Source: an uncultured Eubacterium sp. (GTDB lineage Bacteria; Bacillota; Clostridia; Lachnospirales; Lachnospiraceae). Taken from it: a stretch of DNA of 64,000 bases. The first letter of the stretch is position 1; each line of letters starts with the position of its first letter. The notes beneath the pieces are model-generated. The model was not told where the DNA came from. It was given only the letters and a program-made list of their open reading frames with translations, and made no database searches. The translations under genes and the position numbers were made by a program. Positions 18,295-40,094 of the stretch are shown here, one piece after another. The DNA is taken from NCBI GenBank assembly GCA_910586225.1, contig CAJUIL010000014.1, positions 22,966 through 86,965 of the forward strand, given 5' to 3'.

Positions 18295-18470
18295 TGCAAC
18301 CCGTTACTGAAAACTTATAAAAAGCTATAAACTTTTATGTTCCATTCCTACTTCATTGTATATGCTTTTGATTTGTATTTCTACAATATCTACTTACAAA
18401 TTCTTGTACACTCCATAGGCGTAAATTCCTGACTAACGAATCAGTACATATCTGTATGAACTTGAAAATG

Positions 18471-19649
18471 TTATGCCACAGATTTATGTTTGAAAATATT
18501 TTCTCCAAATTTTTTCAAATTTAAAGCTGCCTGATAATCTCTGTCAATTACATTCCCACATTCACACACGTAAATACGGTCTGACAATTTCAAATCTTTT
18601 TTGATTTTTCCACAACAACTACATAATTTAGAACTCGGAAAAAACCTGTCTGCAATAATTACTTGAATATTATTCCATTCGGATTTGTATTCAATCTGTC
18701 TTCTAAATTCATAGAAACCTTGCTGCTGGACTGCTTTGGATATATGCTTGTTTTTCATCATCCCACTGACATTCAGATCTTCGATACAAATAAAACTTGG
18801 TTCTCGTTTTACAATAGAAGATGTTGTCTGATGTAAGTAATTTTGACGAATGTTCGTTAGTCTATGATTTAACTTTAATAAATGCTTTTCCTTTTTTATA
18901 ATGTTGCTCGTTTTACAATAACATTCTCCTTTCTTATTTTTCTCATATCTTCTTGATATGGAACGCTGCAACCTACGTTTCCTTTTCTCTAACTTCTTGA
19001 TCTTTTGCGTTTTATTTATATTCCGATATTTCTCTCCATCCGAACATACTGCAAGATCTTTCAATCCTAAGTCTATCCCAATACCTTCCTTTGATGAAAA
19101 AACAGCAAAATATTCAGATTCAACCCCAATAGTAAGATACCAGTTTAAACCATCGTGCCTAATACGAGGATTTGCATATTTACAACCTGTAGGAATTCGA
19201 TTGTGTTCTGCGAGTCTAATCCAATTCAATTTTTGCTTCCCCTTCTTCCTGGAAGCTGCAAATCCCTCAACCTTTACATGAGTATCCGTAAATTGTATTT
19301 TTACGTTGTCTTGATAGAATGACGGTACAGAGAATTTACGACTTTTAAATTTAGGGAATCTCGAATATCCTTTAAAAAATCTTCTATATGCTTCACAAGC
19401 ATCTTTGATTGCCTGTTTTGTTACATTGTTCGAAACCTTATTCAACCATGCATATTCTTCTGTCTTCTTTAACTGTGTAAACTCTTTTCGCAGCTCACCA
19501 TCCGAAAGAAATTTCCCACCGTTTTCATAATTCTCTTTTTCTCTGCCTAACGCCCAATTATAAGCAAATCGGGCAGTATTTGCGTACTGAAATAATTTTG
19601 TCTTTTGTTTATTATTTGGCATCAGCATTACCCGAATTGTTTTTATCAT
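18471..19649 (-). CDS. tnpB: TnpB (IS605 OrfB-family RNA-guided endonuclease)
   Basis: MIKTIRVMLMPNNKQ N terminus, a RuvC-like core and a C-terminal zinc finger CSCCG...CECG. Confidence 0.85.
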   Translation of the reverse strand: MIKTIRVMLMPNNKQKTKLFQYANTARFAYNWALGREKENYENGGKFLSDGELRKEFTQLKKTEEYAWLNKVSNNVTKQAIKDACEAYRRFFKGYSRFPKFKSRKFSVPSFYQDNVKIQFTDTHVKVEGFAASRKKGKQKLNWIRLAEHNRIPTGCKYANPRIRHDGLNWYLTIGVESEYFAVFSSKEGIGIDLGLKDLAVCSDGEKYRNINKTQKIKKLEKRKRRLQRSISRRYEKNKKGECYCKTSNIIKKEKHLLKLNHRLTNIRQNYLHQTTSSIVKREPSFICIEDLNVSGMMKNKHISKAVQQQGFYEFRRQIEYKSEWNNIQVIIADRFFPSSKLCSCCGKIKKDLKLSDRIYVCECGNVIDRDYQAALNLKKFGENIFKHKSVA

Positions 19650-19699
19650 CTCTTTCACCACCGTCTTCTATAAGTTCTTTTACAAGCTTTTTCGCCTTA

Positions 19700-28069: not shown

Positions 28070-28101
28070 GCGGACGCCCCCCCCCTTTCCAATCTGAAAG
28101 T

Positions 28102-29394
28102 TTAGTTTCTTGCTACCCGTCTTTCCAGCCGCCTCTGCTTTATTTTCTTGATCTTGTCCATACCGCTGCCCTGTCCGAAATACAAAGCGACGGAAGATAA
28201 GATCATCAAAACGACTGTATAGACAAAACTCATCGCCCTGGCATCCACAGATGCGGATTCATCGGACGCTGCTTTGATCACAACCGACATGACCATCGGG
28301 AAGATTACCGGAAGGATCACCTTGCGCATCGTAGTAAACGCGCCTGCACCCATGCATTTTGCTGCTTCCTCCAAGTCGCCGTCCAGCGAGAAGAACGCCG
28401 CTTTGATCATCCGGCAGGAAAACGGCAGTTTAATCACCGTATAGCCAATCAATAAGATCACGGTCGTTCCTACAAGCACTTTGTTGAAGATCAGCGGATT
28501 TTTATCGCCATAAGCTACAGTAAGTCCTAACGCGATCAATGTGCTCGGCAAAAGCCATGGAATCAGCACGCCGTATTCAAACAATACATTCAGCTTGTTT
28601 TTGGACTTCTGTACAAACCGGACGCAGATCACCGAGACTGCCGCCCTTTTCGATTTTACTGAAAACAGACAGCACCCCGCCGATAATGACCGGAGCCGCC
28701 ATAGCGCCATATCCAGCTCTTGGTAAATACGCTCGCCATCCTTTTCCATCCACGCCATATCAATACGCACAAGGTCGAAAACCGTTTCCTGTCCCGCCTG
28801 CATCTTCGATACCATTCTGCGCAGCTCATCATAAGGCACTTCAATAACCTTGACATCAATGCCGGACTGCTTTTTAAACAGCGGCAGAAGCCTTCGAATC
28901 GCTTTGCTTGTCGCATTTTTGACCGATAACAGGCGCAAGGTTTCTTTTGCCATATGCAGGCTGTCAACATCTTCATCAGACCTTGCAATTACCGCATCAA
29001 ACGAATCTGCCGCATACAGCACGTCAAACGCCCTGTTAAATTTCATAGGATCCGTTGCTGCGAAAACCTCAAAATAGCAGCCTTCACTCTCAAACACTTC
29101 CGATACCGCTTCTATAAACCTTTTGTCATCTGTAAAGCTAACATCCTCGCATAATACCGCGATATTTTTGTTCCCATCCCGCACGCATTTTTCCGCGATC
29201 TCCTTGCCTGCCCTCGCATAGTCAAACGTCGCAAACACAGAATGCTTCGGAAATCCCTTCACATATCTGTCCAGCATCATGATCCGCGTCCCTTCCGGAA
29301 CCGACGCCTTATTTTTCAACAGCGAGCTTACAAGGATCACCGCTGTCGGATTACGGGAAAGCGCCTTGCTTAACAGCCTATATCTGTTACTCAT
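28102..29394 (-). pseudogene. Mosaic ORF: LacI-type ligand-binding half + solute-binding-protein segment + ABC permease C terminus (EAA loop). Probably a degraded transport locus
   Basis: Residues 1-160 resemble the second half of a LacI/PBP-I sensor domain. Residues 170-240 resemble an SBP family-1 N terminus. Residues 270-430 are an ABC permease C-terminal half (LDGDLEEAAKCMGAGAFTTMRKVILP). No single known architecture fits. Confidence 0.35.
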
Positions 29395-32653: not shown

Positions 32654-32819
32654 AAAAATCTCCCTTCTGTATTTTATCTTTATTTTGCTTGTTGCTGGTA
32701 ATCGTTACATAGGTTACATTATAATATGAAATGCCTATTTTTTCAATTAGGATTGCAGACACGAAAAAAAGACTATCTTATCACTTTGCATAACGGCTCA
32801 AAACCGCCCATATTTTTTC

Positions 32820-34961: not shown

Positions 34962-35253
34962 GAGGCGAGAGAGATTTCACCGGTATCAGAAGCAAAGAAG
35001 CAGTATTTGAAAAGATGGAGCGTGAACCATGATACGCTCTATTTTTTTTGAGCCAGAAACAAGACACCCGGCATCCCGAAATTTTCTGTATGATTCCTGT
35101 AAATTCCAAATATTGCAAATAACAGGAAATCCACCAACGGGATTCCCTTGTTATCGCCCTGCGTCACAAAATCCACTGACGATGCGCCGTCCGGTTTCGT
35201 ATCGTAATTACCAGCCAGCGCGGTCATCATTTTTTCTGAATGCGCAATCTGTT

Positions 35254-37545
35254 TTAGTTTTCATCCTGCCCCAGCGCTGCACGATAATTTTTTCCATGCT
35301 CATAGAATTCATTTTGCATACTGACGCTCGTCGGCAAGCCGGACATCCACTTCGCTTCTTCCGTAAGCACAGCCGCGTCTGTACCTTGCACCGGATTTAA
35401 CGCGATCCCATCATACAAGTATATTCCATTTACGAAAAATGGTTCGTCCTCGACATAAAAAATATTTACATAACCGTACATAGCGACCACCGACTGATCC
35501 AGCATACAATAAGAAATCTCAGAGTTGTAGTCTCCGGTCTGCCATTCGTATAACCGGAAAAACCCCATCCTCCTGCCGTCCATCGCAGGCGCATCCCCCA
35601 GTTTTTCTATCGCCTGCCGTCCCGCTTTCATGATAGGGAGCAGATATTTTGCCATACGCTCCCAAGAAACGCGCTCTTTGTATATCCCGCTGCCGGAAGG
35701 ATCAATAATTTTCATAATCTCCTCATACTGCTGCCCATACACTTCCGCCTGAGAGCGATCCGTTAGGATCGTACGATAAAGCTGGTATGCAAAACGCATC
35801 TGAGATGCAAGCAAATACATCTGCTCACAGACCGCATCGCGGTATTCTTCCAGGCTGATCGCCTGGTCACCGTACAGGCTCTGCAAAATACACAGATTCT
35901 GATACTTCGTACTCATATCGCAGCTTTCATCCACAAGACTGTCCAGGAAATATAAACGCCCCTCCAGCTCCTCTACAGCTGCTCTGGCATCTGTCACGCA
36001 TTGCAGACAAGCATCGCTGATCGATTCATTCATATCGGCCATATTTTTGTAATAAACATCGCTGGCGTCGATCATGCCAGAGGCCGCAAGACTAAAAAAC
36101 AGTCCGCCCGGAATATATTTTGCAATTTTTCCAACTGCATAATTCAGCTGATTATTTTCTTGCACCCACTCGCTGCCCGCCATATCGTACTGGGCTTCAA
36201 AATTTTTGATAGAATAGTTCCTGACAGCCTGACAGTCTGAGTCAATCTGCCAAATCTGCTTCCGATATCCGCTAAGCGGCTCTAACAGCTTTTCCCCTAC
36301 ATCCCGAATACCCTGAAAAACCTCAAACGCAGTATCATATTCTGCAATCTTCGCCTTTAACTGTTCTGCCTGCTGCGCCAGTGTGCCGGCAGGTTCCGCT
36401 TCATCCTCCGTAACTTCCGGCAGCTCCATGCCAATAGCTTCTACTACATCTTCCGGCACATCGAATGAACTTTCCATACACTGCTTTTGATCCAGCATCG
36501 CAATCATGACCTCGTTGCGCACATACTGCCGATACACTGTTTCCATTTTCTCATAGCACTGTTTCCAGTCGAAATCAGCTCCTTCGCCAGAAACGCCCAG
36601 CTCCTCCAAGATATTGCCAAACTGGGAGTATTGATACATCATCTCTCCCATATCCTCGGACGACACCTGGCTTTTCTCCAGAAAAGCCGCTATTTCCTGC
36701 GTAGAATCCTGCGCGCTTTCCGACAGCTGCGATAAAAGAGCCGTGGGGGTCTTATCATAATCCAAAACCCCGCTGATCTCCCCGATCAACCCGCCCGCCA
36801 TCTCATCTGCCAGATCTTCATAAGATGCGCCTTCCAGCAACCCTTTTGCCGCGCTTGCCAGCCCTCCGGTCGTTTGATCCAAAATAGAAAGCGCATACTT
36901 TTGCGGTATCTCCTGAATTGCTGCCGTAACGCCATTTGTTACAGAATCCGCCGCACTGCTTAAAGCGTCTGTCAGGCTGCCGCTGGATCTGAATGCCTCC
37001 AACGATCCGGAAACCCCGTTTCTCAAGATCTCACGCACATCGTCATTCGCAATCTCCGACAGGATACTGTCTGTAACCGTATCTGTAATCAAATCCTTAT
37101 ATTCGCCGATCGCCGCATCCACGGCGCCGCCGGACGAAAAGCCGTCTGGAACCTCCACGCCGATGCTCCCCATTACAAGCGTTTTCATCTCCACTGCTAA
37201 AAGCGTATTCTCCTGATAGCATCGGAGCATTTCACTCTGGATCAATTCTTCCAAAGACAGATCTGTGATCTCTTTTAACGTATCCTGACATCGCTGCGCT
37301 GCTTCCCTCTGCTGCCTATAACCGGACATCTGTATTTCCAGCTTTGCTTTCAGCTTTGCAAGATCCGTTTTTGATATCTCATCTACCCGGCGCAATCCCT
37401 CCGCCTCATCCGGCTGCGCCTCCCTGACGCCCGCTTCCTGCTGCTTGTCTTCCACAGCTGTCTTATGACAGCCTGCTATGGGAAATGTGAGGATAAAAAC
37501 CGTAACAAGCAGAATAACAGGCAGAAAACATTTGTTATTTCTGTT
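35254..37545 (-). CDS. Large lipoprotein of unknown function (about 760 aa)
   Basis: The start MNRNNKCFLPVILLVTVFILTFPIAGC has a lipobox, after a G-rich RBS. Largely alpha-helical, acidic, no recognised domain. Co-oriented and contiguous with the upstream YD-repeat lipoprotein. Confidence 0.6.
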   Translation of the reverse strand, partial: NRNNKCFLPVILLVTVFILTFPIAGCHKTAVEDKQQEAGVREAQPDEAEGLRRVDEISKTDLAKLKAKLEIQMSGYRQQREAAQRCQDTLKEITDLSLEELIQSEMLRCYQENTLLAVEMKTLVMGSIGVEVPDGFSSGGAVDAAIGEYKDLITDTVTDSILSEIANDDVREILRNGVSGSLEAFRSSGSLTDALSSAADSVTNGVTAAIQEIPQKYALSILDQTTGGLASAAKGLLEGASYEDLADEMAGGLIGEISGVLDYDKTPTALLSQLSESAQDSTQEIAAFLEKSQVSSEDMGEMMYQYSQFGNILEELGVSGEGADFDWKQCYEKMETVYRQYVRNEVMIAMLDQKQCMESSFDVPEDVVEAIGMELPEVTEDEAEPAGTLAQQAEQLKAKIAEYDTAFEVFQGIRDVGEKLLEPLSGYRKQIWQIDSDCQAVRNYSIKNFEAQYDMAGSEWVQENNQLNYAVGKIAKYIPGGLFFSLAASGMIDASDVYYKNMADMNESISDACLQCVTDARAAVEELEGRLYFLDSLVDESCDMSTKYQNLCILQSLYGDQAISLEEYRDAVCEQMYLLASQMRFAYQLYRTILTDRSQAEVYGQQYEEIMKIIDPSGSGIYKERVSWERMAKYLLPIMKAGRQAIEKLGDAPAMDGRRMGFFRLYEWQTGDYNSEISYCMLDQSVVAMYGYVNIFYVEDEPFFVNGIYLYDGIALNPVQGTDAAVLTEEAKWMSGLPTSVSMQNEFYEHGKNYRAALGQDEN

Positions 37546-37567
37546 CATAAATCCTACCCCCCCTGCA

Positions 37568-38914
37568 TCATGCGCCTTCATAGACAAATTTATACTGACA
37601 CCCATCTCTGTAGCCGTAGCCGTACGGCAACTGCACCCCTATTTCATCTTTAATATATTGGCTTACGAAATCCAAATCATTTACCTGAAGGATTGAATCA
37701 ACATCCAAATGTTTGTAAAGCTCATTACGAGTCGCCTGCACCAGCTGCTCTCCTTCATAGACCAACTCCCATTCAGTTACATCATTGACTGCGGTGGATA
37801 CAAGCTTCCCGTTCTCCCCGTATGTATAACTGCGTACCCATTCATCAGTTTCGTTAAGATTCTCAAAAACAGTTTCTTCCGCCACCTGTCCGTTTGCATC
37901 ATAAGAAATAATCACCGAAGCCCTTATATCCCCGTCACTTATTTCCTTAATGGACCACGGTCGTCCCTCCTCGTCGTATTCGTATTCATATTCGGTTTCG
38001 TAATAATTATTACTACTGCTCCTACTCTTAAACACTTGATTTCCATATTCATCATACTGATAATTATAAATTAACGCCTCATCTGCAATAGATAAAATCT
38101 GTCCATCTTCGCTGAATGAAACGGTTTCCCGACAAAACCTATCATTGCCTGACGAAGGAATGATTTCTGCTGTATCATCCCCATAGACAACGTCATAAAT
38201 ATCGTGATAGCCCTCATCATAGCTACCCTCTGCAGCGCTCACCAGCCGATTCTCATGATCATATGAATACGATTGACCCCATGATCCATCCACATTCCAG
38301 CTCTTTAAAAGACTCTCGTTTGTATGAACCGTAATACCCTTAAAGTGATCTAAATGACTAATCCCGCTGTCAAAGCCTGGCTCATTCTTTAAATAAGCAA
38401 GCAAGTTAAAGCCTTTCACCTTATTTCCCGCTTCATCAGTCAGATATTCATATTGTAACTCACTTATTACCTGACCAGACTTATCCACTAACACCCTTTT
38501 TATCAAATCCAGATCCTTATCATAATAATACGTTCTAGGTTCGCCTGTTTCTTCGTCATTCACGATCCCCATCCATTCTATCTGCTGTAAAAGACCGTGC
38601 ACCTTTTCTTCCCCTTCCTGTGCTGTATCCGAACCATCAGATATTCCTTGCCCGTCTGATCCCGTTGTCTGGTCCTGTATATTTGTTTCATCTGGTACAC
38701 TTGGCTCATCCTGCACTGTCGTATTATCCGATACTGCCGTATCATCCTGCACCGCCGTATCATCCGGTACCGTTGTCGTATTATCCTCCTCAAATTCGTT
38801 CTGTGAAACAACCGTATCCTGCGAAACCTGTTTTGGCTTCCCACAGCCTGACAAGAGAAACATTCCGCTAAGTGCCGCTACAGATAAAAAATAAATAAAA
38901 TTTTTCCTTTTCAT
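37568..38914 (-). CDS. Lipoprotein with YD-repeat (Rhs-like) motifs
   Basis: Lipobox LLSGC, a low-complexity D/T/Q-rich linker, then multiple YxYDxxG(N/R)xV motifs (YSYDHENRLV, YQYDEYGNQV, YEYDEEGRPW, ISYDANGQVA, YTYGENGKLV). Confidence 0.6.
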   Translation of the reverse strand: MKRKNFIYFLSVAALSGMFLLSGCGKPKQVSQDTVVSQNEFEEDNTTTVPDDTAVQDDTAVSDNTTVQDEPSVPDETNIQDQTTGSDGQGISDGSDTAQEGEEKVHGLLQQIEWMGIVNDEETGEPRTYYYDKDLDLIKRVLVDKSGQVISELQYEYLTDEAGNKVKGFNLLAYLKNEPGFDSGISHLDHFKGITVHTNESLLKSWNVDGSWGQSYSYDHENRLVSAAEGSYDEGYHDIYDVVYGDDTAEIIPSSGNDRFCRETVSFSEDGQILSIADEALIYNYQYDEYGNQVFKSRSSSNNYYETEYEYEYDEEGRPWSIKEISDGDIRASVIISYDANGQVAEETVFENLNETDEWVRSYTYGENGKLVSTAVNDVTEWELVYEGEQLVQATRNELYKHLDVDSILQVNDLDFVSQYIKDEIGVQLPYGYGYRDGCQYKFVYEGA

Positions 38915-39094
38915 AATTAAGATCCCCTATTCTACTCCTATGTAAAACTGCTGAGCTACAACTTTCTAAATACTATTTTTGAACGAAAACTTTCTAAATC
39001 CAAAAAACAAGCACACCTCCTTTTCAGCATTTCACGATACATACAATATCCGAAAAAATTTTATGAAGTACGACTAACTGTGATATCGTTAACT

Positions 39095-39135
39095 TCATTC
39101 TACCCCCCCCCACAAACTATTTGTCAATAGAAATT
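39095..39135 (-). promoter_or_regulatory. Candidate promoter with G9 homopolymer in the spacer (TTGACA-N19-TAGAAT) upstream of the lipoprotein operon
   Basis: Minus strand ctaTTGACAaatagtttgtGGGGGGGGGTAGAATgaag. The C9 run sits at 39103-39111 on the plus strand. Confidence 0.45.
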
Positions 39136-39319
39136 TGCAAAACTCCCAAAACAAAAATGTGCCGCTCTCATTGACAAAGTACACTTGATGTACTAACATA
39201 AATAGTACATTTTGCAGGCTCAATCTCAACACAAAGCGAAAATTTCCAATACGTTCTAGTGAAATGGGAATGCTGATATATCTTTTAAAACAAGTGGAGA
39301 AAAAACGCCTAATGCTGTA

Positions 39320-40094
39320 GCAAATTTTTTTAAGGTTACAAAGTCTATGGCTACAAATATGGCAACTTCTTTACTTCACAAAGGATATATTTACTGATCA
39401 TAAAACGTTTCCTAATGCTTTAAAAGATATTGACCGGGTATTTATCATGCGACCTCCCCACTTGGGAAATCCAGAAGATCTGAAGCCTTTTATTGACGTT
39501 TTGAGAGAAGGTGGCAAGATAAGGCTTGTCGGTTTCTTATCCTTGATAGGAGTTGAAAATAACCCATTCCCTCCGCATCATAAAATCGAGAAATATATTG
39601 AATATGCCAGTCTTCCATATTGTCATATTCGCCCCAGCTTTTTTATGCAGAACATCAGCGGTGTACACGCTATTGAAATTAAGCATTTTAATAAGATCGT
39701 CGTTCCTGTAAAAAAATCGTTAACCAGTTTTATAGACGCAGAGGATGTTGGAGAAATTACAGCCAAAGTCTTATGTGAGCCGGAATTACATCAGGGTAAA
39801 ACTTATTCTATAACAGGCGCAGAAGCAATCGACTACTGGCAGGTAGCTAAAATCTTGTCAAAAGAATTAGAGAGAGAAATCATATATACGAATCCTGATC
39901 CATCATTTGCAAAAAAGTACTGGTTAAAGATCAGAGGTTTGGATCAAGATTATTGTACGGTTATGGGAATGCTCTATATGATGACACGTTTAGGAACGGC
40001 AAAGAAAGTCACTCCTGTTTTTGAACAGGTTATGGGAAAAAAACCTCGGACATTTCAGCAGTTTGTTAAAAAAAATTTAGCATTTTGGCAATAG
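39320..40094 (+). pseudogene. NmrA-family NAD(P)-binding protein with degenerate, frameshifted N terminus
   Basis: ORF 39447..40094 encodes the NmrA-like C-terminal two-thirds. Upstream in other frames there is a mutated Rossmann motif (KVTKSMATNMATSLLHKGYIY versus xVTGATGNxGxxLVxxLLxKGYxV) with stops. Confidence 0.5.

Follow-up and report, generated by a model that had tools for sequence, protein, structure and literature searches.

We describe a tract of nine G residues in the spacer of a promoter in a 64,000-nucleotide stretch of contig CAJUIL010000014.1 from an uncultured Eubacterium sp. (assembly GCA_910586225.1); the whole stretch is called the window below. Judging from its sequence context, the tract likely lies in the spacer of a sigma-A-type promoter that serves an operon of two lipoprotein genes. 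It is hypermutable relative to its surroundings: its length differs between otherwise identical genomes, and the changes recur in independent lineages. The layout and variation of the site suggest that it is probably a slipped-strand promoter-spacer switch, or "volume control", of the porA/opc/vlp kind, acting on a strain-variable lipoprotein operon.

Rereading the sequence bore out the coordinates and layout given in a preliminary description of this DNA, in which TTGACA and TAGAAT were placed 19 bp apart with a G run filling nine of the spacer positions. The whole promoter region reads ctaTTGACAaatagtttgtGGGGGGGGGTAGAATgaag, and the ten nucleotides between the -35 hexamer and the run are AATAGTTTGT (Table 1). 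In other words, a homopolymer of at least about 7 nucleotides stands between recognizable hexamers upstream of a gene, here the first of the two lipoprotein genes (gene 1), whose ATG is 183 bp from the promoter site. We infer that this pair of hexamers is the functional promoter of the operon. It is absent from the list produced by our promoter scan of the window because its spacer is 19 bp and the scan accepts spacers of 16-18 bp only. Transcription starting near position 39090 would produce a 5' leader that matches no RNA family in Rfam, at either the gathering or a permissive threshold, and folds no better than shuffled sequence (z = +0.4). The 256-bp segment made up of promoter and leader had no match in plasmid or phage collections. 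Two mini open reading frames (ORFs) are found in the leader (38966-39098, minus strand), one of 24 codons from an ATG at 39098 and one of 14 codons from a TTG at 39010, the latter preceded by a strong, near-perfect ribosome-binding site (AAAGGAGGTG).

Long G runs are rare in the window. Only three runs of G or C reach 6 nucleotides (lengths 9, 9, and 7), all of them G on the minus strand and all intergenic; with run counts dropping approximately 5-fold for each extra base, 0.04 runs of at least 9 would be expected and 2 are seen, an excess of about 50-fold. A perfect TTGACA followed at 15-21 nucleotides by a -10 hexamer with at least five of six consensus positions occurs six times on the two strands, compared with 1.2 times in Markov shuffles (5-fold), and in four of these six pairs the spacer is 17 bp. 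A further promoter-like site, TTGACG-17-TATGAT, immediately precedes a cobalamin riboswitch, and another, TTGCAT-17-TAATAT with an upstream TG, immediately precedes a tRNA gene. They show that ordinary 17-bp promoters of the sigma-A/sigma-70 type are in use here. Because hexamer pairs and G runs are both enriched and 17-bp sites are present elsewhere in the window, the poly-G hexamer pair very likely is, or once was, a genuine promoter. Its 19-bp spacer is anomalous because of the G tract.

We compared tract length in the window and in 14 further independent assemblies that span the promoter, recovered by exact-protein look-ups, and set haplotypes (A, B, B2, and D) from the 3.9 kb downstream of the tract. 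Nine of the 15 assemblies carry G9 and six carry G10, with no other length found. Haplotype A, identical to the window over the 3.9 kb, has four G9 members and one G10 member; haplotype D, with 42 differences from the window, has three and two. Haplotype B (12 differences from the window) is represented by two G10 assemblies, and its near relative B2 (2 differences) by two G9 assemblies. The remaining G10 contig, L024, is short; it matches A over a downstream overlap of 163 nucleotides and is B-like upstream. Both lengths are present inside haplotype A and inside haplotype D, among members that match over 3.9 kb, so the comparison of tract length across strains that the preliminary description proposed came out positive. 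For example, the G10 contig SRR9205135_66 (haplotype A) aligns to the window over 21.8 kb with 0 mismatches, and the sole indel is at the poly-G tract. Samples from the same study also differ: SRR9205130 has G9 and SRR9205135 has G10, while SRR29841302 and SRR29841316 have G9 and SRR29841315 has G10. At least three independent changes between 9 and 10, of unpolarized direction, are needed to produce this distribution (in haplotypes A, B/B2, and D), and the recurrence in separate lineages appears consistent with reversibility.

It is extremely improbable that the difference between G9 and G10 is a sequencing or assembly artefact. Homopolymers of 9-10 G residues are error-prone on Illumina, and the comparison used consensus assemblies; however, G10 was obtained from SPAdes, Logan, and other assemblies of six samples, and G9 in nine. 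In SRR9205135_66, the two other long G tracts of the window, a G9 before the MgtC gene and a G7 before the second lipoprotein gene (gene 2), have the same lengths as in the window, which argues against generic homopolymer error. In addition, runs of A or T of up to 8 nucleotides show no indels in the 3.9-kb comparisons within haplotypes.

The strongest argument that the tract is functional comes from an orthologous operon in another species. This locus, L054 (GCA_021770345.1), encodes proteins that are 25% (gene 1, E = 2e-15) and 38% (gene 2, E = 2e-145) identical to those of the window. Its promoter reads TTGACA-AAATATACC-GGGGGGGG-TAAAAT, in which nine nucleotides and a G8 run make up a spacer of the optimal length, 17 bp, and the hexamers agree with the consensus at 11 of 12 positions; this G run at the equivalent place supports the reading given in the preliminary description. 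This is the sole promoter-like site in its region, and the G8 is the longest G or C run in 18.4 kb of the locus. A hairpin with a T-run upstream of the L054 promoter, read by eye and unlisted by the terminator scan, looks like the terminator of the upstream gene. The upstream regions of the two operons align only at the -35 hexamer, the G run, and the -10 hexamer. Only six distinct G tracts of at least 7 residues occur in the 615 kb of loci that were fetched, and the window and L054 promoters account for two of them. Whether inherited or convergent, a poly-G tract abutting the -10 hexamer thus accompanies this operon over a wide evolutionary span. Exact-pattern scans of GTDB representative genomes, JGI metagenomes, and IMG/VR returned no match to the promoter pattern with any tract length, and protein-based locus searches of the GTDB representatives and JGI metagenomes returned no relative of gene 1; the loci compared here were therefore all obtained by exact-protein look-ups.

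The tract could also be a fixed regulatory element beside the -10 hexamer, such as a binding site or a DNA-structure element that tunes the promoter, whose changes in length are tolerated and not used. Its equivalent place in two distant orthologous promoters and its length of 8-10 in all copies would fit such an element. We nevertheless consider this very improbable: no regulator gene is conserved beside both operons, the spacer has no dyad symmetry, and the spacers of the two species are 2-3 bp apart in length, a difference that could hardly be accommodated by a fixed architecture.

Lineage D provides an indication of which promoter serves the operon. In this lineage an insertion sequence (IS) of 1.5 kb encoding a DDE_Tnp_1 transposase (L049, 5729-7274) lies between the poly-G promoter and the divergent promoter of a neighboring MarR-NmrA cassette; its terminal inverted repeats are 18 bp long (CAGAATAAACGCATGAAC), and the target duplication is approximately 10 bp. 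The IS cuts the operon off from all candidate promoters beyond it, including a weaker one at 39229-39202, and from any transcription that reads through from the upstream defense genes. Despite the IS, both genes are intact in lineage D, and gene 2 has a pN/pS of 0.18. Since the operon is isolated by the IS and its genes have been kept, the poly-G promoter is favored as the one that matters. An outward-reading promoter may be present inside the IS.

These data also bear on the suggestion that the G run is the Shine-Dalgarno sequence of the 24-codon ORF (ATG 39098-39096, MKLTISQLVVLHKIFSDIVCIVKC) on a transcript from further upstream, with the hexamers incidental. An ATG does occur 4 nucleotides past the tract, the other two G tracts of at least 7 residues in the window end 7-8 nucleotides before real start codons, and G-rich Shine-Dalgarno sequences (GGGG, GGGGG) are frequent in the genome. 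Against this, the gap of 4 nucleotides is below the 7-9 nucleotides found at other G-rich Shine-Dalgarno sequences, and a perfect -35 hexamer with a five-of-six -10 hexamer is unlikely to surround the tract by chance (expectation about 0.003 for this intergenic strand). L054, with a matching promoter layout, has no ATG past the tract (TAAAATTCTTG), and in lineage D the IS removes transcription from upstream. The suggestion is therefore improbable. The available copies of the 24-codon ORF are nearly identical, so its conservation is uninformative. The second G9 tract of the window, at 28077-28085, is itself a Shine-Dalgarno sequence, since it ends 7 nucleotides before the MgtC/SapB start codon.

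Several observations weigh against reading the tract as a selected switch. The predicted ON lengths, G7 and G8 (17-18 bp), are absent from all 15 assemblies; spacers are only 19 or 20 bp, with no observed ON/OFF pair and none in the range expected to function (about 17 +/- 1 bp). All observed alleles are 2-3 steps off the optimum, and the 17-bp version is known only from the orthologous operon. The assemblies are consensus sequences that give the majority allele only. Two other orthologous loci do without the tract: the gene pair of L010 lies inside a longer operon and has no G or C run of 6 or more, and in L056 the promoter is an ordinary one, TTGACA-17-TATAGT, followed by a small ORF. Nor is length variation confined to the promoter, as other G tracts of the species vary to the same extent with no apparent role in switching. 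The ribosome-binding-site tract of MgtC is G4, G5, G6, or G9 depending on the strain, with G5 commonest and G9 confined to the window lineage, and the gene 2 tract is the one difference between two contigs, L007 with G9 and L005 with G7. At 4472-4480 of L049 (haplotype D, a Logan contig), in sequence covered by one assembly, there is a G9 where TGGGGGAG stands in the window (at about 40405) and in two other lineages; either a G tract has grown there or the run is a sequencing artefact. Because other G tracts also change in length, variation alone indicates hypermutability and not selected switching. Finally, the lipoprotein promoter of vpma in Mycoplasma agalactiae also has a homopolymer, a poly-T, directly before its -10 hexamer, and experiments showed that this poly-T gives no phase variation; switching there is due to Xer1-mediated inversion (PMC2268961). 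Such a position alone is thus too little to establish a switch.

The main alternative is neutral slippage in a decayed promoter, in which a tract whose spacer once measured about 17 bp, like that of the ortholog, has grown to G9-G10 because G tracts in this species generally tend to lengthen, and has left the promoter permanently weak, the flicker between 9 and 10 being noise around an equilibrium length rather than selected, reversible switching. The lack of any allele below G9 in the 15 assemblies would fit this, as would the growth and variation of the MgtC, gene 2, and L049 tracts. The window lineage also shows signs of decay in the deletion fusions that affect its MarR-NmrA cassette and ABC-transporter genes, and gene 1 is seemingly split (187 + 241 amino acids) in one strain. 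On the other hand, five lineages have kept both genes intact, with purifying selection on gene 2 (pN/pS 0.07-0.18); therefore the operon must be expressed. A poly-G at the equivalent position in a distant ortholog is hard to explain without a function, and the fact that the three or more changes are all between 9 and 10, with none to 8 or 11, is a weak sign of constraint. On balance we think neutral slippage unlikely, though it deserves more weight than the other alternatives considered here.

The switch that we favor would work as follows. Slipped-strand mispairing in replication would add or remove G residues, and each residue gained or lost would change the spacing of the two hexamers and their rotational phasing, and with these the strength of the promoter. 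Spacers of 19 and 20 bp would give low or no expression, shorter active alleles would arise as minority variants, and the gut populations sampled would be mainly low or OFF. The preliminary description had suggested phase-variable expression, and that suggestion holds in part. The promoter anatomy, the G9/G10 variation, and the tract of L054 speak for it; the missing ON lengths and the occurrence of tract variation at other sites do not.

Slipped-strand promoter switches are textbook mechanisms of mucosal pathogens, including Neisseria, Haemophilus, Helicobacter, and the mycoplasmas. In Neisseria meningitidis, van der Ende and colleagues reportedly found in 1995 that porA spacers with 11, 10, and 9 G residues give high, medium, and no expression, and Sarkari and colleagues are said to have described poly-C promoter-spacer phase variation of opc in 1994. 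The likeness to our locus is close: a G or C homopolymer of about 9-14 nucleotides lies between the hexamers of a surface-protein gene, poly-G in porA and poly-C in opc, and slippage changes transcription. Unlike the window locus, which has 19-20 bp only and is known from sequence alone, the Neisseria alleles straddle the optimum, and the host is a proteobacterial pathogen rather than a Gram-positive-type gut commensal. Intergenic repeats can change the spacing of promoter elements in Neisseria (PMC5084427). By product (lipoproteins) and by phylogeny (a Firmicutes-related lineage), the closest analogues are found in mycoplasmas, where single-base indels in a spacer homopolymer by the -10 hexamer switch the lipoprotein genes vlp of M. 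hyorhinis, maa2 of M. arthritidis, and vmm of M. mycoides (PMC2268961). The vlp homopolymer consists of A residues, in an AT-rich genome, and controls a multigene, size-variable lipoprotein family, whereas the window has a G tract at a single operon whose products bear no relation to Vlp.

Other kinds of switch were considered and set aside. Invertons of gut commensals and of Clostridioides difficile turn surface and other genes ON and OFF stochastically (PMC11868660); their mechanism is wholly unlike the one proposed here, and the window locus has no notable flanking inverted repeats or recombinase gene. Specifically, only weak inverted repeats of 10-15 nucleotides were found, the promoter has one orientation in 15 of 15 assemblies, and no recombinase gene is adjacent. 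An inversion or shufflon is not supported because the window does not contain the alternative sequence that precedes gene 1 in lineage C. A MerR-type long-spacer promoter was rejected, as the spacer contains no dyad or inverted repeat and the divergent neighbor is a MarR remnant, not MerR.

Both products of the operon have an N-terminal signal peptide and a lipobox of the form [LVI][ASTVI][GAS]C, which supports the preliminary description of two downstream lipoproteins. The gene 1 product begins MKRKNFIYFLSVAALSGMFLLSGC, and its lipobox, read from the sequence, is ...MFLLSGC with the cysteine at residue 24. It had been called a YD-repeat lipoprotein; the match to Pfam RHS_repeat is weak and above threshold (E = 1.4e-6, 29 bits, cut-off 22), with repeated YxYD motifs. 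With 448 amino acids, it lacks an Rhs core shell and a C-terminal toxin domain, and on these features it would be a YD-repeat-containing lipoprotein, not an Rhs toxin. Gene 1 is intact in lineages A, B, B2, C, and D. In one contig known from a cluster listing (ERZ15891940 NODE_46), it appears split into products of 187 and 241 amino acids and may be a pseudogene. Between haplotypes A and B, gene 1 has 11 nonsynonymous changes and 1 synonymous change, clustered near residues 396-411, an excess that, in these small numbers, would be compatible with an exposed protein under diversifying selection. Nine of the A/B substitutions fall within 45 nucleotides (window 37700-37760, codons approximately 396-411) and nearly all of them change the amino acid, so that the patch reads ATRNELYKHLDVDSILQVND in one haplotype and ATYNDLSKHLDVHSIIRVND in the other. 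Either recombination brought in this patch or diversifying selection acts on the site.

The gene 2 product has its lipobox cysteine at residue 27 (...TFPIAGC, likewise read from the sequence). It had been described as a large lipoprotein of no known function, and our searches agree: we found no Pfam or PADLOC family, no match in a profile search of PDB sequences, and no significant PDB fold match for the AlphaFold model. The model, of medium confidence (pLDDT 67.7), consists mostly of long alpha-helices with a small C-terminal beta domain. The gene 2 family is very small: of 5.8 billion 90%-identity clusters, six belong to it.

Table 1. Features of the poly-G promoter, the lipoprotein operon, and adjoining sequence, in window coordinates.
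Feature	Position	Strand	Details
Whole promoter region	39097-39127, inclusive	-	Read directly
-35 hexamer TTGACA	39122..39127	-	Perfect consensus; read directly
Spacer, 19 bp	39103..39121	-	10 nucleotides plus G9; read directly
Hypermutable poly-G tract, G9	39103..39111	-	Abuts the -10 hexamer; C9 on the plus strand; from sequence and assembly comparison
-10 hexamer TAGAAT	39097..39102	-	5/6 consensus positions; read directly; compare TAAAAT after G8 in L054
5' leader, about 176 nucleotides (predicted)	38915..39090	-	Start of transcription near 39090 predicted from sequence
Gene 1, 448-amino-acid YD/RHS-repeat lipoprotein	37568..38914	-	ATG at 38914; lipobox LLSGC; Pfam
G7 tract, likely Shine-Dalgarno sequence	37557..37563	-	Between genes 1 and 2; ends 8 nucleotides before the gene 2 ATG
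Gene 2, 764-amino-acid lipoprotein	35254..37548	-	ATG at 37548, 20 nucleotides past the gene 1 stop; lipobox IAGC
Terminator-like hairpin	35124..35148	-	After gene 2; probable end of operon
Insertion site of IS in lineage D	39152..39162		25 bp upstream of the -35 hexamer; poly-G promoter left intact
Divergent back-to-back promoter TTGACA-17-TAACAT with GTACA...TGTAC operator	39171..39199	+	Belongs to the degraded MarR-NmrA cassette

Upstream of the operon, on the plus strand, the MarR-NmrA cassette (39264-40094) is a pseudogene that has lost 355 bp internally, so that the beginning of MarR runs straight into NmrA at its residue 47. Loci L038 and L039 served as references for intact cassettes (MarR of 111/142 amino acids and NmrA of 286 amino acids), and the divergent promoter with its palindromic operator has been conserved and is homologous to their MarR promoter. 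Homology to the cassette ends at about 39170, approximately 44 bp short of the -35 hexamer; therefore, the poly-G promoter is a separate element outside the cassette. Beyond the cassette lies a RADAR-like anti-phage pair (40503-46235, minus strand) consisting of an ATPase of 1004 amino acids that matches PADLOC RdrA (E = 1e-11) and an adenosine-deaminase-domain protein of 900 amino acids that matches PADLOC RdrB (E = 3e-34). We saw no obvious intrinsic terminator between rdrB and the lipoprotein operon.

The sequence upstream of gene 1 is not the same in all strains. Five contigs with an identical gene 1 (including L005 and L007, positions 1-32) have a different upstream sequence from nucleotide -10 onward (GCTGTTATTCCGTGAATAATTCAGG|TTAATTATG; window 38915-38923). 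The lineage C-type contigs all end approximately 32 nucleotides upstream of gene 1, and the alternative sequence resembles the end of an upstream gene. Because the sequence upstream of gene 1 differs by strain, the poly-G promoter is located at a strain-specific rearrangement junction. The lipoprotein operon is accessory: some strains are without the entire segment to the right of window position 32790, and the GTDB and JGI searches above likewise returned neither its promoter pattern nor a relative of gene 1.

Two other loci in the window were noted. At 28102-29394, an ORF of 430 amino acids is a fusion produced by a deletion of approximately 5.4 kb relative to L026, which took most of the gene for a LacI/solute-binding protein, the genes for GDPD, a solute-binding protein, and an ABC ATPase, and part of the permease gene. 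At 18345-19661 (minus strand), a RAGATH-18 RNA (Rfam, 67.9 bits) is found 52 nucleotides downstream of an IS605 OrfB/TnpB-type gene; in the identical locus L025, this gene matches Pfam OrfB_IS605 and Cas12f1-like_TNB. The RNA is placed as expected for the guide RNA of such an element.

The window is identical to the metagenome-assembled genome (MAG) GCA_948957185.1 over the 20.6 kb compared. Its MgtC falls in the same 90%-identity cluster as MgtC of Eubacterium plexicaudatum ASF492, related MAGs are labelled "Eubacterium sp." at NCBI, and close relatives of the neighboring NmrA gene are in Lachnospiraceae. Because of these annotations, the host appears to be a mouse-gut member of Lachnospiraceae close to Eubacterium plexicaudatum.

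Work on stochastic surface variation in gut commensals has concentrated on invertible promoters, and to our knowledge DNA inversion is almost the only form of phase variation yet described in commensal gut Clostridia. Our search of the full-text literature, with subscription journals outside its coverage, returned no report of phase variation by simple sequence repeats in Lachnospiraceae. The locus is probably an added case of a known mechanism in an unusual host group. More tentatively, a poly-G-gated promoter may be a heritable trait of a rare family of two-lipoprotein operons in Lachnospiraceae, with a 17-bp spacer in one species and 19-20 bp in another. It would then be a genuine contingency locus of commensal gut Clostridia, with mouse-gut populations mostly low or OFF and 2-3 slippage steps from ON. 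If the switch is real, slipped-strand spacer switching would extend to the Lachnospiraceae of the mouse gut, and this fast-evolving pair of lipoproteins would be marked as a likely target of host or phage pressure.

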